Positions 6,842-21,305 of a stretch of DNA of 24,000 bases are shown here, piece by piece (the stretch's first letter is position 1; each line of letters opens with the position of its first letter). Under the pieces are notes generated by a model that worked only from the letters and a program-made list of their open reading frames with translations, was not told the DNA's origin and ran no database searches. The translations under genes and the position numbers were made by a program. The stretch spans positions 1 through 24,000 of the forward strand of contig JAMOVR010000296.1 in assembly GCA_027061945.1 (NCBI GenBank). Direction: 5' to 3'. The stretch comes from Candidatus Heimdallarchaeota archaeon (lineage in GTDB: Archaea > Asgardarchaeota > Heimdallarchaeia > Heimdallarchaeales > JAJRWK01).

Positions 6842-7543
6842 ATGTTACTTGCAGGAATATTATCTATAATAATTGGTTATTTTTTGGGATCTATCCCAAC
6901 AGCTTATTTAGTAAGTAAGTATGGCTATGGAATAGACATTAGAAAAGTAGGATCTGGTAATGTAGGAGGTGCAAATGCCCTTAGAACAATGGGTACCAAA
7001 GCTGGCCTTATAGTAGTTATTGTAGATGTCGGAAAGGGGACCGTAGCTGTTTTAATTGCTAAATATTTACTAAAATTACCCACCTTGAATAATTTTAATT
7101 ATTTTGATTTGTCTTATTGGGGGTGGTTAGGACTAGTAGGCATTGCTGCGGTCTTGGGGCATTGTTATCCCGTATGGTTGAAATTCCAAGGTGGAAAAGG
7201 TTGGGCAACAACTATTGGTTTTACCTTAGGTTTAGGATGGCTTCCTTTCTTGTTAGTATTTATCCCCTGGGTTTTTATCGTGCTTATTTCGGGTTTTACT
7301 TCCTTGGCAAACATTTTAATTGTGATACTACTTCCTTTTGCCTTAAGAGTAGCAATTCCTGATAACACATTATTTGCAGTAAGCTTATTATTTATGCCAA
7401 TTATCTGGTGGAGGCATAGAGAAAATATTTCTCGTTTATTAGAGGGTAATGAAAGGAGAATATGGAAAAAAGAGCTGGCAATTAAAAAAAATGGTGAACA
7501 AGAAAAACAAGGAGAAAATAAAACTACGGAGGAGAAGAAGTAA
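6842..7543 (+). CDS. plsY: Glycerol-3-phosphate acyltransferase PlsY (acyl-phosphate dependent)
   Basis: All three PlsY signature blocks are present: GSGNVGGANALR, DVGKGTVAVLIA and GHCYPVWLKFQGGKGWATT. The protein is multi-TM and carries an extra charged C-terminal tail (KKNGEQEKQGENKTTEEKK). Confidence 0.85.
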   Translation: MLLAGILSIIIGYFLGSIPTAYLVSKYGYGIDIRKVGSGNVGGANALRTMGTKAGLIVVIVDVGKGTVAVLIAKYLLKLPTLNNFNYFDLSYWGWLGLVGIAAVLGHCYPVWLKFQGGKGWATTIGFTLGLGWLPFLLVFIPWVFIVLISGFTSLANILIVILLPFALRVAIPDNTLFAVSLLFMPIIWWRHRENISRLLEGNERRIWKKELAIKKNGEQEKQGENKTTEEKK

Positions 7544-13080: not shown

Positions 13081-14016
13081 TTAACTGGTAAAACCGATAA
13101 TATTTACGTTTTCGGCCCATAATACTTTTCTTTGCCTCGGATAAAATACTGCAGCGGGACTACGCATGAACTCTACTACAGTGTAATCAATACTACCCCA
13201 TTGGACCACATTAATTGCTCTTTCGAAAACATCAACAATAGTCCCTAAAACTAACATAATTTTATCTTTAGCGTCATTGTCTTGCCCCTTAGCTTGTGCC
13301 CATGTTTCATGTGGAATTGGCTTCTTTGGTTTACTGATAGATGCAATGATTATTTTACGTGTCCATTCAAACTGGAACACATATCCTGCAGAACAATAAA
13401 CAAAGAATCTCTCAACTAAATCAATTTGTCTTGATATTGGTGCCCATACTGCTTTTGCGGTTTCTACCATTAATGGTCCTAGCAAAGCAGCAACATTTTC
13501 CTTTTGATGTTGACTAATTATCGGTGTGTCCATACATTCTTCAAGAATTATGTCATAACTCTTATTAAAAATGGTAATACCTAATGTCGAAGGTGATGAT
13601 GCTAACCTCTCAATAATTGAATAACCGTATTCTTTGAATATCTTATCTAAATCTACAGAAAATTTTTCATACTTATTAGTTTCAATAATTCCTCTTTTCA
13701 AGTCCTCAATGAAAATCTCTTCGAATTTTTTACCAATTTCTTTAGCGATGATTCTAAGAAAAGGAAATAACTTAGTTTTTCGAGATCTTAACGCAACATA
13801 TACATATTCGCCTTGCTCAATAAGATATTCAGAATTCTGTAATTCAACACTTTTAACTTCTTCTTCCGTGGTCTCCACAATTAGGTTTTGAATTGCTGTG
13901 AGTGCACCAGCAAAAAGGATGTTGTCATTGTCATTATCATAAACGTAATCTCTCATGAATAATGGTACGCCAGTCTTTGTAACGACGAGCAGTGCATCGA
14001 TTAGTTTTTCCACCAC
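13081..14016 (-). CDS. Hypothetical protein, possibly tandem longin/roadblock-like alpha/beta domains
   Basis: The N-terminal pattern IDALLVVTKTGVPLFMRDY...ILFAGALTAIQNLI...VELQNSEYLIEQGEYVYVALRS...LRIIAKEIGKKFEEIF resembles the strand-helix-strand layout of longin/roadblock (LC7/MglB) folds. A second similar unit is LGITIFNKSYDIILEE...VAALLGPLMVETAKAV...FFVYCSAGYVFQFEW. The fold assignment is by eye only. Confidence 0.55.
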   Translation of the reverse strand: MVEKLIDALLVVTKTGVPLFMRDYVYDNDNDNILFAGALTAIQNLIVETTEEEVKSVELQNSEYLIEQGEYVYVALRSRKTKLFPFLRIIAKEIGKKFEEIFIEDLKRGIIETNKYEKFSVDLDKIFKEYGYSIIERLASSPSTLGITIFNKSYDIILEECMDTPIISQHQKENVAALLGPLMVETAKAVWAPISRQIDLVERFFVYCSAGYVFQFEWTRKIIIASISKPKKPIPHETWAQAKGQDNDAKDKIMLVLGTIVDVFERAINVVQWGSIDYTVVEFMRSPAAVFYPRQRKVLWAENVNIIGFTS

Positions 14017-14225: not shown

Positions 14226-14678
14226 ATGACACCCACAGAAATTCATGACCGGGAAATAATATATTCAGAAAATGCACCTAAAGCAATTGGACCTTATTCC
14301 CAAGCAGTGAGGGTAGGAGGAATGGTATTTACTGCAGGGCAATTAGGGATAGACCCCAAGACAGGAGAATTAGTTTCTGGGGGAATAGAAGCGGAGACTA
14401 GACAAGCATTAGAGAACATTAAAAACATTCTTTCTCAATGTTCTTGTTCGTTAAAGGGAGTAATCAAAACAACTGTTTTCTTGAAAGATCTTGGAGACTT
14501 CCAAAAATTCAACAAGGTATATGCCGAATTTTTCCCCGAAGAACCACCTGCAAGGACAACAGTACAAGTTGCTGCTTTACCTAAAGGAGCAAGCATAGAA
14601 ATTGAGGCAATTGCAGTTCAACCGCAGTTATTACTCCCTGAAGAAAAAGAAGGTGAAGCAAGACCAGACTATGCATAA
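14226..14678 (+). CDS. ridA: RidA / YjgF / TdcF-family reactive enamine-imine deaminase
   Basis: Near-canonical RidA sequence: [93 protein letters not shown]. It carries a roughly 20-aa C-terminal extension. Confidence 0.9.
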
Positions 14679-14735
14679 AAAAGAGTTAAAAGATTATAAT
14701 TAGATAAATAAAAACAATTTTAATGCCTTTTAGCA

Positions 14736-15914
14736 CTATGGTTTAAATTGTTTTCTAGCTTTTACTGCTTCAAAAACAAGATTCTCTATTTTAGTATTGA
14801 TCTTTTCTATGTTTTGTAACGAAAATTCTTGTAACTCGTCAAAACTTAGTCCTTCCCGGACTAATAATTCTTTTTTAGCATATTTTGCTTGTTGCATGGT
14901 TTTGACTATTCTTGGGGCTACTTCTAGACCACTTATTATTGCTCTTAATGCTCTTTCTCCGACTTCTTCCTCAGAAATAAATTTTAGATATGGTCTTGTA
15001 TATTCAAAGGACGAAGAAAGTTTCTTTGCTTCAAAATTGGTTTGAAAGTCTAACTCAACATTAAACCACGCAATATAAGCACCTTTTGCTTTATAGATCT
15101 CTTCTTTTTTAATTTTAGTAACATAGTGCACAGAATCAATAATAAGATCATTTACTCTAACAGCTTTTTGTTTTTCATTTAACTTTCCAATGGTTCTAGA
15201 GACTATTATAGATAATCCTTTGATAGTTAGGACTTCAACTAAGTTGTTAAGAGTTGCTTTATAGTCTTCAGAAATAGATGGAAGATATGAACTAATAATC
15301 AAATCTCTGAGAGTAATTGCTAGTAAGTTGTTTTTTTTGGCTACGAATTCTTCAAAACTCAAACTTTTTTCTTCTTCTCCTGGGCTACTGTCATACAGTA
15401 TGACTGGTAAGTTCAACGCTTTTTCAGAGTATAGTGCGTAGAATAAAAATTCAGAGCTATTAAGTAAGGCCGTTGCGGGTTCTGAAAGGTCAGGATAAAT
15501 ATAGAGCACCACAGGAACTATGCCAAACTTTTCTTTTAAGTAATTAGCGTACCAAAGTCCTACACCAGAGCTAAAAGTGCCACTACTAACTAAGATCATA
15601 GTGAATTTATTTTCTTTTTTAATAATTTTCTGCGTATTTTTTCTTATTTTCTCTTCTAGTTCTGTGTCTATGTTATTTTTATAGTCATCTACTCTTTTTG
15701 GTCTTCTCTCAAGATCTTCTTCAAAAGATACTTCGTTGTCAAATTTTTTGGATAAAAGGTTTTTTTGTTTTGTGCGTCTTAGCCATAAAGAATGAACTTT
15801 TGCATCATATTCTTTCATGGAATTAATGATATCAACTCCCATCTTTCCAGCGAAGTCTCCAATGGCGATTAATGAAAATTCCATTTCTATTTTACCAAAT
15901 AGTCTTTTGAACAT
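14736..15914 (-). CDS. Divergent FtsZ/tubulin-fold protein, paralog B (third gene of operon)
   Basis: Collinear with FtsZ blocks. T1-like: SLIAIGDFAGKMGVDIINSM. T4-like: FTMILVSSGTFSSGVGLWYANYL. Next strand: IVPVVLYIYPD. IPND-like strand: LNLPVILYDSS. There is also a T7/H8-equivalent region and a C-terminal domain (GAYIAWFNVELDF...LRAIISGLE). Clear paralogy to 17283..18542. A GGGAG Shine-Dalgarno-like motif lies 10 nt upstream of the ATG. Confidence 0.55.
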   Translation of the reverse strand: MFKRLFGKIEMEFSLIAIGDFAGKMGVDIINSMKEYDAKVHSLWLRRTKQKNLLSKKFDNEVSFEEDLERRPKRVDDYKNNIDTELEEKIRKNTQKIIKKENKFTMILVSSGTFSSGVGLWYANYLKEKFGIVPVVLYIYPDLSEPATALLNSSEFLFYALYSEKALNLPVILYDSSPGEEEKSLSFEEFVAKKNNLLAITLRDLIISSYLPSISEDYKATLNNLVEVLTIKGLSIIVSRTIGKLNEKQKAVRVNDLIIDSVHYVTKIKKEEIYKAKGAYIAWFNVELDFQTNFEAKKLSSSFEYTRPYLKFISEEEVGERALRAIISGLEVAPRIVKTMQQAKYAKKELLVREGLSFDELQEFSLQNIEKINTKIENLVFEAVKARKQFKP

Positions 15915-15942
15915 TTTTTATCAACTCCCGAATAACTTTACC

Positions 15943-17271
15943 TTAGCCTCCTGCAATCTTTGGTAAGAATTTGAATAGATATCCAATGTATACTAAGATC
16001 ATCTGCGTTAGTTTAACAGGATCTACGGGTGATGTTTTCATTTGATAGATGTACTGCCTCAAAGAAAATAGGACTAATGTTTCATGTTCCATTCGTTCTT
16101 TTCTTCCTAATGCAGTGTCTTGTATTTCATCAAAAATATACGGATCGAGCTCTTTTAGTGCTTTTATTCGGAATTTGCGGATTACCCACCATAATTTAAA
16201 TAGAGGAATAATTATCCGTGATAAAGAGAAGAAAACAGTGATCAATAATAAAATTAAGAATAGGAACCCGACGGGAGAGAAATACGTAACTAATGCACCG
16301 AGAACTGGCGTATTATTATTTTTGGCGGCATTAAGGAAGCTGTTTACTTCACCAAGCACTGGAATTAACATATTATATATGAATGAATTGAGTACCAATA
16401 CTAAAGATCCAAGTCCTAACAATGGGATGTCTCCTAATTCTCTTAAAGAATGCCCTGGAGTATTTCCTAAGATCATTACTACTTCATAATTATTCTTAGT
16501 CAAAATACTTTCAAATCCCTCGTTATAACCCACAACACGGTTTTTAATGGGTTCAATTAGTTTATCATAAATCTTTGTATTGTTTTGGATAGTGATTAGT
16601 GAAAGTATTAAAATGGACTGTACTGGTAAAACGAAAAGTAACGCAATACTGCTAAGCACTAAACCAATTGTTGCATTCATTGGACTTACTCCCTGGGAAA
16701 CAATTTGATGAACTGCTTTGTAAATGAAGAGTATAAATGGAATCATCATGGAAGCTAAAGCATATCCAAATACTTTCTTTGTATAAGATTTCCTATAAGC
16801 TTCTGAGAAAGGTGCTTTAACTGCTTCTGCTATCCATGGAAACCTTGTTGTTTGTAATAAGTTTGAAAATAGTCCATATGTTAATTTAATTGCACCAATC
16901 GCCGCCCAATATCCAATTACTCCAATTACTGCAGTAATTACTAATGGGCCTGTAGGCATTTTCATTAGTGAAAAACCGATTGGTAACAATATGAATGCGG
17001 GAATATATCCTAAAAATAATATTCCTGATATAATCAGATATGGTTTCCAAGGCACCGAGAGAATAACACTTAATGGTAATTTTCTTAGTGCATTAGGGAT
17101 TCTAAATACATTATGCAAGGGATCTTTTAACTGCTCGAGTAAATGAACTTGTTCGGGTTCAATATCTTTAGGTAAATTTTTCTCGTATTCCTCCAAGAAC
17201 TGGTCGAAAACGAAGTGAATTTCTTCCGGCCGACGAGGAATTGTTAAAGGCACGTTTTTCATAATTCTCAC
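15943..17271 (-). CDS. Orphan polytopic membrane protein (middle gene of the FtsZ-like operon)
   Basis: About 8 hydrophobic helices, a soluble N-terminus of about 65 aa (PRRPEEIHFVFDQFLEEYEKNLPKD...) and a soluble C-terminal region (KALKELDPYIFDEIQDTALGRKERMEHE...). The track start is GTG 17271, but ATG 17262 is preceded by GGGTGA with a 5-nt spacer and is the more likely start. No family recognised. Confidence 0.6.
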   Translation of the reverse strand: MRIMKNVPLTIPRRPEEIHFVFDQFLEEYEKNLPKDIEPEQVHLLEQLKDPLHNVFRIPNALRKLPLSVILSVPWKPYLIISGILFLGYIPAFILLPIGFSLMKMPTGPLVITAVIGVIGYWAAIGAIKLTYGLFSNLLQTTRFPWIAEAVKAPFSEAYRKSYTKKVFGYALASMMIPFILFIYKAVHQIVSQGVSPMNATIGLVLSSIALLFVLPVQSILILSLITIQNNTKIYDKLIEPIKNRVVGYNEGFESILTKNNYEVVMILGNTPGHSLRELGDIPLLGLGSLVLVLNSFIYNMLIPVLGEVNSFLNAAKNNNTPVLGALVTYFSPVGFLFLILLLITVFFSLSRIIIPLFKLWWVIRKFRIKALKELDPYIFDEIQDTALGRKERMEHETLVLFSLRQYIYQMKTSPVDPVKLTQMILVYIGYLFKFLPKIAGG

Positions 17272-17282
17272 CCTATCTAAGT

Positions 17283-18542
17283 TTACTCCTTCATTTCTTC
17301 AACACTAAAATCTGCATCCGCCGGGGAAATACCTTCTAGCTTGTCAATATTATGGACAGGTTTTCCTTGTATAAATGTATCTGCCTCTCTTTCTTTCATC
17401 CTAACAGTTAGTTTTTCAGTATTCTCCATCCACTCTTTGATGTATTTCTGGGCACCAAGTCCTGTTAATAATCCACGAAAAACAAATTGGTCATCTTCTC
17501 TAGTTGTGAAGTGCCAGTATATATCCGCATTAGAAAATAATTGTTGTGCGTTTAGGTAATCTTCTGCAAGGACTGAGTTCTTAGGAACTTGAAAAACAAC
17601 GTATCCTCTTGTTGATTTAAATGGATCTAAAGGAGCGGAAACGCTTTCTACTAAGTATTCACTGACGAACTCTGAAAGATTGTTTTTTAGTTCTTTAAAC
17701 ATGCCGTTTAATGAAAATAAGACTGATGGTCCACGTAGATAGTAAAATAATGAAGAAAACTCTGGATACCCCACATCAAATCCTTCTGTAGGACTATACA
17801 ATGAACTAATTATATCATCAATAACTGACGCTATCTTATCTGGGTATATCCTTAATATTTGATCGGCGGGAACTTTTTGTCCTTCATAAAAGCGATTTGT
17901 ATCAATTATTATAAATGGAATATTTAAAGAGGAATCAATAGGTGCAAGCCCTAATTTATACATAGCAACTGCTGCATTAAACTTGTTTGTAAGTGGTGCG
18001 CCTTTTTCTGGAAGCATAATTACTGGTATTGGCATGATATCCATTTCTAAAAGTGTTTGACAGATATAAAGTCCGCCTCCAACGCCTATTGAGTCAGAAC
18101 CAAAAAGTACAAGTGCTGTTTTTCCAAAGCCTTTTTTAGAAATTAACTCATGGACTTTCTCATTAACACCGGCACTGTTTTTCTCTATTAAATCATAAGC
18201 ATTCAAGTAGTTTCGAAGTTCATCTCCTTGCTTTTCACCTAAGCTAATGAACAGTTCAGTTTCTTTGGGATTATTTGTACCTAAATATCCAATTCCAAAA
18301 TGAAATATCTTTATTTTCTTCTCTGACAGCTTCTCAAATACTTGTCGGGCAATAGCGCCGCCCATCGAACCTATACCAAAAATAAATATTCCGGGAGCAT
18401 CTTTATCTTTTGTTTCATGAACCAAAAAATTTGGTTCCTTTCCTTCAATAAACGCTTTTAAATCATGAAAAACATGAATGTTTGCTTTCTTTTTTTGAAA
18501 TATTCCTAATAATCCTTTTTTCTTTGTCATTTTACATCGCAC
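17283..18542 (-). CDS. Divergent FtsZ/tubulin-fold protein, paralog A (first gene of operon)
   Basis: Full-length collinearity with E. coli FtsZ blocks: IFIFGIGSMGGAIARQV vs IKVIGVGGGGGNAVEHM (T1); ALVLFGSDSIGVGGGLYICQTL vs MVFIAAGMGGGTGTGAAPVVA (T4); IPVIMLPEKG vs VAVVTKPFNFEG; IPFIIIDTNRF vs SLITIPNDKL; FDVGYPEFSSLF vs NVDFADVRTVM (T7/H8); GYVVFQVP...FRGLLTGLG vs GVLVNITAG...VTVVATGIG. The start is GTG 18542 or ATG 18530. Confidence 0.6.
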   Translation of the reverse strand: MRCKMTKKKGLLGIFQKKKANIHVFHDLKAFIEGKEPNFLVHETKDKDAPGIFIFGIGSMGGAIARQVFEKLSEKKIKIFHFGIGYLGTNNPKETELFISLGEKQGDELRNYLNAYDLIEKNSAGVNEKVHELISKKGFGKTALVLFGSDSIGVGGGLYICQTLLEMDIMPIPVIMLPEKGAPLTNKFNAAVAMYKLGLAPIDSSLNIPFIIIDTNRFYEGQKVPADQILRIYPDKIASVIDDIISSLYSPTEGFDVGYPEFSSLFYYLRGPSVLFSLNGMFKELKNNLSEFVSEYLVESVSAPLDPFKSTRGYVVFQVPKNSVLAEDYLNAQQLFSNADIYWHFTTREDDQFVFRGLLTGLGAQKYIKEWMENTEKLTVRMKEREADTFIQGKPVHNIDKLEGISPADADFSVEEMKE

Positions 18543-18570: not shown

Positions 18571-18578
18571 ATATATAA
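18571..18578 (-). promoter_or_regulatory. TATA-like box for the FtsZ-like operon
   Basis: TTATATAT on the minus strand lies about 30-45 nt upstream of the two candidate start codons, in an otherwise featureless AT-rich spacer. Confidence 0.3.
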
Positions 18579-18791: not shown

Positions 18792-19058
18792 TTAAGGGGT
18801 CTGGTAGGGGCATGTTCCATTATTTTGTCCTTGCCCATTTTGCCCGTGGTATTGATTACCAGTACCATCTTGTGGAGCATCTCCTCTCATGTATTGATGG
18901 CCATTTCCTTGGCCATGTGGTCCAGTTCCATCGCATACATCAGTTTGTGTTCCAATTGTCATGTCATCTGCGAATGCATACATTACCATCCCAGAGACAA
19001 TTAATACTGCAAAAAACGCAGTTATGAGTGCTGTTCTGCGGTTCATGTTACTCACCAA
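18792..19058 (-). CDS. Small secreted G/Q/N/H-rich protein with signal peptide
   Basis: N-terminal MNRRTALITAFFAVLIVSGMVMYAFA-DD has the n-, h- and c-regions of a signal peptide. The mature part is low-complexity (GTGPHGQGNGHQY...GTGNQYHGQNGQGQNNGT) with two Cys. The gene is visibly more GC-rich than its flanks. The start is GTG 19058 or ATG 19046. Confidence 0.55.
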   Translation of the reverse strand: MVSNMNRRTALITAFFAVLIVSGMVMYAFADDMTIGTQTDVCDGTGPHGQGNGHQYMRGDAPQDGTGNQYHGQNGQGQNNGTCPYQTP

Positions 19059-19426: not shown

Positions 19427-20881
19427 GTGATAAAAAAAACAAAAATAGTTGCTACAATTGGTCCTAGTTCAGAGTCTGAAGATACTCTTTTGAAATTATT
19501 TGATGCTGGTATGAATGTTGCCCGTTTAAATCTTTCTCATGGCACTCTTGATCATCATAAAAAATTATTTGATAAAATTCGTGCATTAAATGATGAAATT
19601 GCTATTCTGTTAGACATAAGTGGTCCTAAAATACGGGTGGGTAAACTCAAAGAACCGATAGAGTTAAAGAAAGGACAAAAATTCATTTTAACTAAGAAGG
19701 ACATAGTTGGAGATGAAACAAAAGCTTCTGTTACCTACCCTGCGTTGATTGATGACTTAGAAATAGGTTCAATTATTTATCTAAATGATGGCCTAATTTC
19801 TTTAAAAGTAATAGAAAAGCATCCTGATTACTTGGTTACTGAAGTATTAGTTGGAGGAGTTCTGACATCAAACAAAGGAATTAATGTGCCTGGAAGTAAT
19901 ATTTCAGCATATACTCCAACCAAAAAAGATGAAAAAGACATTCTAGAAACTGCTAAGTGGGAACCAGATTTTTACTCCGTTTCTTTTGTTAGAAGAGTAA
20001 AAGATCTAGAAAATGTAAGAAAACTTATCTCGCAAGTTACAAGTGATAATATTCCTCTGATAAGCAAAATTGAGCATTTAGACGGATTAAAAAATTATGA
20101 TTCCATTGCAAAGGCTTCTCAAGGTATAATGGTTGCTCGTGGAGATTTAGGTGTAGAAATACCTTTAGAAAAAGTACCTCTCGTTCAAAAGGACTTAGTA
20201 CGGAAAGCCAATTACATGGGGATACCAGTGATCGTAGCTACTCAAATGTTAGAATCAATGATTGTGAGTCCTCGTCCCACTAGAGCAGAAGCAACTGATG
20301 TTGCTAATGCAATTTTAGATGGTGCTGATGCAGTAATGCTTTCTGCAGAAACTGCAACTGGAAAATATCCTATAAAAGCAGTACAAACGATGTCTAAAAT
20401 TTGTGTGGAAGCTGAAAATAATTATTATCCTTCATATGAAAGAAGAGAAGTTTCTTCTGGCGCTAGGATACCTATGAATATTGGGCGTGCAGCAGTAAAA
20501 CTCGCCAAAGACATAGAAACAGAAGCGATTTTAGCTATGACACAAACCGGAACAACAACTGCAATGGTCTCCACTTTTAGACCCCATCAAATTATTCTCG
20601 GTTTTGCTACAAATAAAAAAACGCTTAGAAGATTAGCTCTTCAATGGGGAGTACAACCAGTTCTTTTTGAGTTTATACCAGATACTGATGATATGATTTT
20701 ACAAGCAGCAATAAAAGCATATGAGGAGGGATACATTAAACGTAATCAGTCTTTTATTGTTGTAGCAGGTTCATTACTAGGACTTCCTGCATCTACAAAT
20801 TTGATACAATATCATACAATGGATGAGATTCTTCGTTCGGTAGAAGCCCAAAAAGAGTTCATTAAAGCATATTCTCTTTAA
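19427..20881 (+). CDS. pyk: Pyruvate kinase
   Basis: Canonical PK blocks: KTKIVATIGPSS, MNVARLNLSHG, DISGPKIRVG, ISKIEH, IMVARGDLGVEIP, VIVATQMLESMIVSPRPTRAEATDVANAILDGADAVMLSAETATGKYP. A C-terminal regulatory domain is present. GTG start. Confidence 0.92.
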   Translation: MIKKTKIVATIGPSSESEDTLLKLFDAGMNVARLNLSHGTLDHHKKLFDKIRALNDEIAILLDISGPKIRVGKLKEPIELKKGQKFILTKKDIVGDETKASVTYPALIDDLEIGSIIYLNDGLISLKVIEKHPDYLVTEVLVGGVLTSNKGINVPGSNISAYTPTKKDEKDILETAKWEPDFYSVSFVRRVKDLENVRKLISQVTSDNIPLISKIEHLDGLKNYDSIAKASQGIMVARGDLGVEIPLEKVPLVQKDLVRKANYMGIPVIVATQMLESMIVSPRPTRAEATDVANAILDGADAVMLSAETATGKYPIKAVQTMSKICVEAENNYYPSYERREVSSGARIPMNIGRAAVKLAKDIETEAILAMTQTGTTTAMVSTFRPHQIILGFATNKKTLRRLALQWGVQPVLFEFIPDTDDMILQAAIKAYEEGYIKRNQSFIVVAGSLLGLPASTNLIQYHTMDEILRSVEAQKEFIKAYSL

Positions 20882-21017: not shown

Positions 21018-21305
21018 ATGGCAAGTGACAAGTTTATCGGATTTATTATGACGATAATTGGGATAGCGGTAATTTTTGTAGAAGCTTATTATCTCATTTA
21101 CCAACCCATTATGGATACTCAATTGATCGCGGGATTCGCTGCTCAGTATTGGGCCTTAGCCATTCCCGTGTTCTTAGCAATACTCGGCCTGTTTCTTATT
21201 GTCATCTGGATTGGCTACACCATGATGACAACGCCTCCACCGGAAGAATTTGATTTCGAAGAATTCGAAAAAGAAATCAAAAAGGAAGAAGAGAAAAAAG
21301 AGTAA
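21018..21305 (+). CDS. Small two-TM membrane protein with acidic/lysine-rich tail
   Basis: Two hydrophobic helices (FIGFIMTIIGIAVIFV, WALAIPVFLAILGLFLIVIWIGY) followed by PPPEEFDFEEFEKEIKKEEEKKE. A GAGGG Shine-Dalgarno-like motif lies 7 nt upstream of the ATG. Confidence 0.55.
   Translation: MASDKFIGFIMTIIGIAVIFVEAYYLIYQPIMDTQLIAGFAAQYWALAIPVFLAILGLFLIVIWIGYTMMTTPPPEEFDFEEFEKEIKKEEEKKE

Follow-up and report, generated by a model that had tools for sequence, protein, structure and literature searches.

A chromosomal gene module of Heimdallarchaeia combines two anciently duplicated tubulin/FtsZ-superfamily proteins with a polytopic membrane protein

A, M and B are three adjacent minus-strand genes on contig JAMOVR010000296.1 of a Candidatus Heimdallarchaeota archaeon (GenBank assembly GCA_027061945.1). 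The stretch analysed here comprises the first 24,000 nucleotides (nt) of this contig and is designated the window. A and B encode full-length paralogues in the tubulin/FtsZ superfamily. M, located between them, encodes a polytopic membrane protein with about seven transmembrane (TM) helices. The module has a size of ~3.8 kb. Exact copies of its genes are present in public assemblies, where A, M and B are recorded as 'hypothetical protein'. A and B constitute their own small clade with an early A/B duplication, and TubZ and CetZ, not FtsZ, are the named proteins closest to them. These statements on identity and family can be made with near certainty. As far as sampled, the module is confined to Heimdallarchaeia, and it is surrounded by chromosomal housekeeping genes. 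The reading favoured by a modest margin of belief is that of a chromosomal, Heimdallarchaeia-specific set in which the ancient A/B paralogues and a dedicated ~7-TM protein M work together as a membrane-docked A/B assembly. The mechanism by which this would occur, docking combined with hetero-assembly, is proposed more tentatively.

The paralogy of A and B had been postulated in an earlier note made from the window sequence alone, and it is borne out at two levels. In BLASTP, both proteins align with E=6e-7 over 154 amino acids (aa). A comparison of the A-family and B-family profiles by hhalign yields a probability of 98.4% and E=9e-15 over 338 columns. Assignment to a superfamily requires family profiles and structure, since the single window sequences are nearly invisible to standard libraries. 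Searches of Pfam, NCBIfam and PDB with window A, B or M as single sequences returned nothing significant: A alone has no match in Pfam, B alone reaches Pfam Tubulin only with E=0.14, and neither of them matches FtsZ in a sequence search of PDB. A match of A to Dps (E=0.0025) is spurious and was set aside. When the family members are considered, Pfam PF00091 (Tubulin) is detected in seven of nine A-family proteins (best E=1.2e-11) and in three of nine B-family proteins (best E=1.6e-5), and two proteins, P0003 and P0007, exceed its gathering score. The A-family profile retrieves TubZ/RepX (4ei7, E=1e-8), CetZ (4b45, E=2e-7) and dozens of FtsZ entries (~1e-6) from PDB. The B-family profile retrieves TubZ/RepX (4ei7) with E=1.4e-9, in an alignment that reaches the C-terminal 'aGLPlPkR' helix, and CetZ with E=3e-4. 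AtubA and OdinTubulin score E=0.1-0.5 only with this profile.

The fold of B was modelled with AlphaFold2 from an alignment of 48 sequences (predicted local distance difference test, pLDDT, 88.9; predicted template-modelling score, pTM, 0.84). In the model, the order S1-S6/H7/S7-S10 corresponds to the canonical two-domain tubulin fold and is followed by two long C-terminal helices. Foldseek places TubZ (4ei7, E=1.7e-15, template-modelling score 0.68-0.70) and CetZ (3zid, 4.9e-15) at the top of the PDB matches. Other TubZs, CetZ2, FtsZs and tubulins follow at 1e-13 to 1e-11. A generic Rossmann dehydrogenase fold is thereby excluded. For A, full-length homology to B and its own profile matches point to the same two-domain fold. 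The earlier note had aligned both proteins block for block with FtsZ. This was correct with respect to the superfamily, but FtsZ is not the closest relative, because TubZ and CetZ are closer. A has a long C-terminal helix succeeded by the tail motif 'GKPVHNIDKL' (consensus of the A-lineage: 'GK.NPKID.L'). This conserved tail is a candidate docking peptide. At the opposite end, a short hydrophobic patch and, behind it, a polybasic run are conserved in all paralogues.

The family is small. Word-indexed searches of 5.8 billion clusters yielded three clusters for A and three for B. An exhaustive HMMER scan, for which a mixed A+B profile was run against 1.84 billion representatives, gave 83 matches at E<=1e-3, which can be assigned to three tiers. 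The top tier comprises 24 core proteins at E<=1e-30, approximately evenly A-like and B-like. The second contains ~20 proteins termed A-prime (A'), and the lowest consists of TubZ-like (TubZ-like_C) and CetZ (CetZ_C) proteins. The A/B family has only ~45 representatives among 1.84 billion proteins. The named records are all from Heimdallarchaeia or Hodarchaeota, and the orthologous loci originate from metagenome-assembled genomes labelled Candidatus Heimdallarchaeota, Hodarchaeota or Heimdallarchaeaceae. In a bootstrapped distance tree (not a maximum-likelihood tree) with TubZ-like and CetZ proteins as outgroups, the whole A/A'/B set together with two lone relatives is separated from the outgroups in 100 of 100 bootstrap replicates. 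Within this set, an A-lineage (A, A' and P0041; bootstrap 78) and a B-lineage (B, the canonical protein of the third clade and P0031; bootstrap 83) can be distinguished. This split places the duplication before the divergence of the Heimdallarchaeial clades.

The earlier note had regarded the module as distinct from canonical FtsZ, CetZ and tubulin. Domain searches, hidden Markov model (HMM) scores, the tree and published descriptions agree with this view and extend it to TubZ, FtsZl1, FtsZl2 and Asg.Tub. FtsZ proper does not apply: FtsZ_C is found in no A/B member, a division-gene context is absent, and the family branches outside the outgroups used. CetZ_C (PF21011) is present in the CetZ control P0052 (E=1.7e-36) and in no A/B member, and A/B are monophyletic to the exclusion of P0052. 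Similarly, TubZ-like_C is found in the control P0049 and not in A/B, and the module, which has a chromosomal context, lacks a small DNA-binding gene. Bona fide tubulins (alpha/beta, BtubA/B, OdinTubulin, AtubA/B) are rejected by the lack of Tubulin_C and by the poor scores of the B profile given above. In Heimdallarchaeales, the published alpha/beta-tubulins were identified with OdinTubulin as BLAST query and are true tubulins without a membrane gene between them. PF13809, the domain of FtsZl1/Tubulin_2, is matched in only one of nine A members, below the cut-off. In addition, the operon partners described for FtsZl1, vWA, GTPase and OmpA genes, are absent; for FtsZl1, a role in membrane remodelling with membrane-associated partners was proposed (Makarova and Koonin, 2010). 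FtsZl2 was described without conserved context (Makarova and Koonin, 2010), unlike the A-M-B module. Asg.Tub is an Asgard-specific paralogue group (Santana-Molina et al., 2023). Its fragments PWI48967.1, KXH77455.1 and OLS26264.1 score 9-20 bits on the A/B HMMs; on the A-family HMM, the CetZ and TubZ-like controls reach 31-66 bits. The A-M-B module is not mentioned in the searchable recent Asgard papers and reviews and is apparently undescribed. Within the tubulin superfamily, the family represents a branch that had apparently not been described before and is not captured as a Pfam family.

The association of the three genes is conserved. Loci were found by seeding on conserved M peptides and on individual proteins, and genes were assigned by HMM score. 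In each of the 13 independent related loci that are long enough to show it, M occurs together with an A-type gene and a B-type gene, one of each. The order A-M-B is found in the window (L003) as well as in L001, L004, L005, L006, L007, L008 and L010. L013 and L014 have the order M-B-A', and in L011, M and B share one strand with A' being divergent. Truncated modules are present in L002 (A-M), L009 (M-B) and L016 (pyruvate kinase-A-M). E-values of the M-like proteins in these loci range from 1e-26 to 1e-62. Some relatives have overlapping module genes. Purifying selection acts on all three genes. Between L001 and L004, nonsynonymous divergence (dN) amounts to 0.108 for A, 0.045 for M and 0.070 for B. 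The ratio to synonymous divergence (dN/dS) is <=0.04 in each case, an imprecise value since dS is saturated at ~2.7-3.0. Conservation is highest in M, and even the motif-degenerate B is clearly constrained. In L007 (9896-10040), the M orthologue is interrupted near its 5' end: homology begins at ~9944, whereas the frame is open only from 10040 on. Either a frameshift, an assembly error or a pseudogene may explain this.

Hydropathy analysis of M predicts six strong TM helices and one weaker C-terminal hydrophobic helix, i.e. about seven instead of the approximately eight counted in the earlier note. The seventh is weak in the clade of the window. Lysine and arginine are unevenly distributed: the N-terminus, loops 126-162 and 225-276 and the segment from 362 to the end have 6-13 of these residues each, the outer loops 0-1. 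From this bias, the N-terminus, both loops and the region after TM6 are predicted to be cytoplasmic. Outer loops are 11-31 aa long, inner loops 37-52 aa or longer. The most highly conserved segments of M are these predicted cytoplasmic parts, among them the TM4-TM5 loop with 'RVVGYNEGFESILTKNNYEVV..LG.TPGHS.RELGDIP' and the post-TM6 segment 'KALKELDPYIFDEI' as well as 'ET..LF.LR.YIYQMKTSP'. By sequence, M has no match in Pfam, NCBIfam or PDB, and the family profile returns only noise from PDB and Pfam at E<=10. An AlphaFold2 model of M, built from eight sequences and of medium confidence (pLDDT 78, pTM 0.76), is all-helical. It has helices at 194-247, 275-315 and 319-383, of which the first and third are very long, followed by 389-406 and 415-438, which are split at 'PVDP'. 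The cytoplasmic parts of M thus include large and highly conserved helical extensions. A Foldseek search of PDB with this model gave no significant match. Seven of the 11 top Foldseek matches are insect odorant or gustatory receptors (E=0.02-0.2, probability <=0.97, template-modelling score 0.26-0.43). Thus, the M model weakly resembles seven-transmembrane ion channels (7TMICs) of the insect odorant-receptor type. The topology of M agrees with that of 7TMICs, with the N-terminus inside, about seven TM helices, short outer and long inner loops. Long TM4-TM6 helices and a split TM7 are consistent with this family in the medium-confidence model. In the earlier note M was an orphan. It does lack a recognizable sequence family, but the weak resemblance of its model to 7TMICs casts doubt on the term, and M may not be a true orphan.

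The nucleotide pocket and the catalytic T7 loop differ strongly between the clades. Assignment of the T7 residues is by sequence alignment. In the window, A has the T1 loop 'GIGSMGG', the degenerate T4 loop 'GSDSIGVGGG' and the T7 loop 'GFDVGYPEF', in which the Glu at the catalytic position is kept and the preceding Asp is lost. Window B has T1 'AIGDFAGKMG', a degenerate T4 loop 'SSGTFSSGVG' and Asn at the catalytic position of T7 ('ATLNNL'). The canonical signature (glycine-rich T1, T4 with G-G-G-T-G-[ST]-G) is absent from the window copies and present in orthologues. The earlier note had named a T1 glycine loop and a T4 tubulin-signature position; in the window, these T1 and T4 loops are degenerate. 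In the Hodarchaeota-type clade, T4 is canonical in both lineages (A-lineage GAGGTGVGAG, B-lineage TGPGATGLGG), and T7 comprises a CetZ-like D..E ('SADLNEF') in the A-lineage and Asp in the B-lineage. L001 and L004 retain T4 in the A-lineage (GAGATGVGGS, T7 with Glu) and have lost it in the B-lineage (SSDGFSTAFAS, T7 with Asp). The reverse is observed in Heimdallarchaeaceae. There, the A' proteins have lost T4 and carry Asn in T7, and the B-lineage protein has a canonical T4 (GSGGGTGSAG) and Asp in T7. A' is the most numerous branch of the family, with ~20 representatives of ~420 aa within P0028-P0048 (e.g. L013:9177-10439 and L011:3163-4455). Both glycine loops, T1 and T4, are lost in A' ('ENNAF'), which makes these proteins apparent pseudo-tubulins by their motifs. 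They are still encoded beside M and a canonical B-type GTPase.

This reciprocal motif loss would fit a partnership of A and B in which only one nucleotide site per pair is needed, by analogy with alpha/beta-tubulin. In most clades, at least one of the two paralogues combines a canonical GTP pocket with an acidic T7. It is therefore plausible that each A/B interface has a single GTPase site, with a division of labour as in alpha/beta-tubulin. In the window lineage, both pockets are degraded and T7 of B contains Asn. Judged from these motifs, the assembly in this lineage is probably GTPase-poor and more static.

The following mechanism would account for these observations. A and B would co-assemble head-to-tail, as tubulin-superfamily proteins do, into a heterodimer or heteropolymer. 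Docking onto the conserved cytoplasmic loops or the C-terminal region of M would keep this assembly at the inner side of the membrane. The assembly could in this way act as a membrane-attached scaffold or cytomotive element that either shapes and organises the membrane or controls M. Where the motifs are intact, assembly would be GTP-driven. A more specific version, in which A and B are an obligate heterodimer that arose independently of true tubulins and polymerises on a cytoplasmic anchor domain of a 7TMIC-type channel M, is unlikely.

Several observations weigh against a membrane-docked A/B assembly. In the window, the T4 loops are degenerate in both proteins and B is devoid of the catalytic residue, which argues against classical GTP-driven dynamics here. 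In Heimdallarchaeaceae, A' has neither pocket nor acidic T7, so that none of the interfaces in a polymer with strict alternation would be catalytically functional. The N-terminal peptides are not recognisable as an amphipathic membrane-targeting helix of the OdinFtsZ1 kind: their hydrophobic moments do not surpass those of shuffled controls. The block pyruvate kinase-A-M-B-RidA is itself syntenic, and adjacency of the three genes could partly reflect inherited gene order. Finally, two lone relatives, P0031 (L012:763-2010) at the base of the B-lineage and P0041 (L015:2842-4074) at the base of the A-lineage, are located on short contigs of higher G+C content (46% and 51%) without an adjacent M gene. 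They may represent other lineages or stand-alone versions.

Four other explanations were weighed. The first starts from M as a 7TMIC-type channel or receptor, with A and B as non-polymerising, largely pseudo-GTPase subunits that would bind its cytoplasmic 'anchor' domain and serve its gating, trafficking or assembly instead of building a cytoskeletal filament. Apart from the insect receptors being the only structural matches of M, the architecture of M fits the published description of 7TMICs, with the very long TM4-TM6 and the broken last helix of its medium-confidence model being consistent with it, and 7TMICs with eukaryote-like long helices were reported from Heimdallarchaeota. The degenerate GTP and T7 motifs of window A and B and their complete loss in A' also speak for such subunits. 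However, the Foldseek values of M are poor, a sequence or Pfam link to 7TMIC families was not found, and most clades preserve the canonical signature and T7 in at least one paralogue in proteins with full polymerisation-competent two-domain folds. This explanation is rather improbable.

Less probable still is an alternative or auxiliary division or cell-shape machine similar to FtsZ/SepF or CetZ, in which A/B filaments would constrict or shape the cell and M would be no more than the membrane anchor. It would be in line with the common superfamily, with CetZ being among the closest structures, and with the requirement of all FtsZ-type systems for a membrane partner. In addition, the OdinFtsZ paralogues illustrate that paralogue specialisation and distinct modes of tethering occur in Asgard archaea. 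It is at variance with the lack of nearby division genes, of FtsZ_C and of CetZ_C, and with the degenerate motifs in several clades. The cellular process is the one point that separates this proposal from the membrane-docked A/B assembly, with which it otherwise overlaps. That A/B filaments move DNA, as parts of a domesticated DNA-segregation system of the TubZ type (type III), is highly unlikely: TubZ/RepX is the top match in sequence and structure, including the C-terminal 'aGLPlPkR', and the outgroup protein P0046 is encoded beside a small TubR-like open reading frame (ORF), but the module has neither a TubR-like DNA-binding gene nor centromere-like repeats, its third component is a polytopic membrane protein, it resides in a housekeeping neighbourhood conserved across the class without relatives on viral contigs, and TubZ-like_C was not detected. 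That the three genes are neighbours through inherited order only, without a functional link, is equally far-fetched, since the trio, in spite of the regional synteny that extends to pyruvate kinase upstream and RidA downstream, persists through the changes in order and orientation described above with spacers of 11-28 nt or overlaps, and the A, M and B families share their rarity and narrow phyletic range.

The three genes are tightly spaced. Table 1 lists the coordinates of the module, its signals and the neighbouring features. The three minus-strand ORFs, the spacer lengths and the Shine-Dalgarno (SD)-like motifs ahead of M and B described in the earlier note were confirmed. A scan for sigma-70 promoters and intrinsic terminators gave counts equal to shuffle expectation and is uninformative for an archaeon.

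Table 1. Positions of the module genes, candidate signals and neighbouring features in the window.
Feature	Position	Strand	Remarks
Gene A (tubulin/FtsZ superfamily, A-lineage)	17283-18542	minus	GTG start at 18542, 419 aa; public call ATG at 18530, 415 aa, P0001
Gene M (polytopic membrane protein)	15943-17271	minus	GTG start, 442 aa; public call ATG at 17262, 439 aa
Gene B (tubulin/FtsZ superfamily, B-lineage)	14736-15914	minus	392 aa
A-M spacer	17272-17282	minus	11 nt to GTG or 20 nt (17263-17282) to ATG of M; purine-rich SD-like GGGTGA
M-B spacer	15915-15942	minus	28 nt; purine-rich SD-like GGGAG
Candidate archaeal TATA-like box TTATATAT	18571-18578	minus	AT-rich; 29-36 nt upstream of GTG 18542, 41-48 nt upstream of ATG 18530; by sequence reading
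Convergent B/ridA intergenic region	14679-14735	minus	oligo-T runs after B; candidate archaeal terminators
RidA/L-PSP gene	14226-14678	plus	downstream of B
Pyruvate kinase gene	19427-20881	plus	adjoins the module
Orphan ORF	13081-14016	minus	311 aa; just past ridA
Small ORF	18792-19058	minus	88 aa (called as 63 aa); upstream of A
PlsY-type glycerol-3-phosphate acyltransferase gene	6842-7543	plus	
PIG-P/DPM2-like protein gene	~21018-21305	plus	95 aa; L003:2049-2336

The window has a G+C content of ~33% and is identical to part of a metagenomic contig of 54.6 kb. Apart from the module, it contains genes for an MFS transporter, an arginase-family enzyme, an F420 glutamyl ligase, PlsY, three glutamate-synthase-like subunits, RidA, pyruvate kinase, a DPM2/PIG-P-like protein, a zinc-ribbon protein and a KaiC-like ATPase. 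In agreement with the earlier note, none of the canonical division genes ftsA, sepF, min and cdv is present within these 24 kb. Pyruvate kinase adjoins the module in nine loci from all clades (window, L001, L004, L005, L007, L008, L010, L013 and L016). Some of these loci have it in divergent orientation, others in the direction of the module, directly ahead of A. GDP is among the substrates that pyruvate kinases can phosphorylate. A local supply of GTP for the module by this enzyme is speculative, and the arrangement may equally be inherited synteny. The RidA/L-PSP gene is also found downstream of B in L006, L007, L008 and L010, with varying distance and orientation. Nothing spoke for a mobile-element origin of the module, as no relatives of M or of A were found on viral contigs. 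The gene of P0046 (L017:5752-7122), the nearest outgroup, follows an 81-aa ORF, and genes for a helix-turn-helix repressor, a UvrD helicase and the phage protein pRha lie around it. This is a typical TubZ/TubR-like mobile-element setting, in contrast to the chromosomal context of the module.

Two further ORFs were considered as module components and dismissed. The 311-aa orphan ORF has no match in Pfam or NCBIfam, is not found beside the trio in other loci and is probably unrelated. The small ORF upstream of A is likewise not adjacent to the trio elsewhere. Its product has an N-terminal hydrophobic segment and a tail rich in Gly, Gln and Asn, and in L001 only ~160 nt separate pyruvate kinase and A. 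Two other genes of the window deserve mention. PlsY belongs to bacterial-type phospholipid synthesis and is encoded here on an archaeal contig. The 95-aa protein has precomputed Pfam matches of the PIG-P/DPM2 type, families that comprise subunits of eukaryote-type glycosylation and glycosylphosphatidylinositol-anchor synthesis, and may be an Asgard 'eukaryotic signature' gene.

No archaea are known to be more closely related to eukaryotes than Heimdallarchaeia, to which Hodarchaeales belong. The cytoskeletal and membrane machinery of Heimdallarchaeia therefore bears directly on eukaryogenesis. With the A-M-B module, the tubulin superfamily gains a distinct branch that was anciently duplicated and is tied to a dedicated polytopic membrane protein, a pairing undescribed for FtsZ, CetZ, TubZ or Asgard tubulins. 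The reciprocal loss of pocket and catalytic residues in different clades provides a natural experiment on the division of labour in paired tubulin-like subunits, a question that alpha/beta-tubulin raises as well. If M proves to be a 7TMIC, the enigmatic 7TMICs of archaea would for the first time be placed in a functional context. If, in addition, an A/B heterodimer were located on such an M, the archaeal lineage closest to eukaryotes would offer a case of a channel or receptor coupled directly to a cytoskeleton of tubulin-like proteins. As the system is small and some orthologues have canonical motifs, it is directly testable.

A comparison with known systems reveals partial likeness to each of them. 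M shares with 7TMICs, i.e. insect odorant and gustatory receptors (Or/Gr) and the Arch7TMICs of Heimdallarchaeota, the number of about seven TM helices, the predicted cytoplasmic N-terminus and the loop pattern, and the long TM4-TM6 and split last helix of its medium-confidence model would be consistent with them. By contrast, its similarity is below significance (E>=0.02, template-modelling score <=0.43) without a sequence-profile link, and Arch7TMICs were compared by description only. FtsZl1, FtsZl2 and Asg.Tub are, like A/B, divergent prokaryotic branches of the tubulin superfamily. FtsZ is tethered to the membrane by a partner (SepF, FtsA or ZipA) or, in OdinFtsZ1, by an N-terminal helix, and A/B have conserved terminal peptides as well. 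Unlike these adaptors, which are peripheral, the presumed anchor M is a ~7-TM protein, and A/B have neither FtsZ_C nor a division-gene context.

TubZ/RepX, the type III partition tubulin of plasmids and phages, is the best match by profile and structure and has the same two-domain fold followed by a long C-terminal helix with a 'GLP.P.R' motif. In contrast to TubZ/RepX, the module is chromosomal, has no TubR or centromere, comprises two paralogues instead of one and a dedicated membrane protein, and forms a separate clade. CetZ, the second-best match by profile and structure, is an archaeal cell-shape protein that is neither FtsZ nor tubulin, and the 'D..E' spacing in its T7 loop resembles that of the A-lineage. 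Here, A/B differ by the lack of CetZ_C, by their occurrence in Heimdallarchaeia versus mainly Euryarchaeota and by an operon of paired paralogues and a membrane protein, which is not a feature of CetZ. A/B are not bona fide tubulins, and a heterodimer of the two is putative. Nevertheless, alpha/beta-tubulin, BtubA/B, AtubA/B and Heim-alpha/beta are, like A/B, adjacent ancient paralogues that differ in T7 or in the integrity of the pocket. By analogy with these heterodimers, the differences between A and B suggest a pair composed of a catalytic and a non-catalytic partner.

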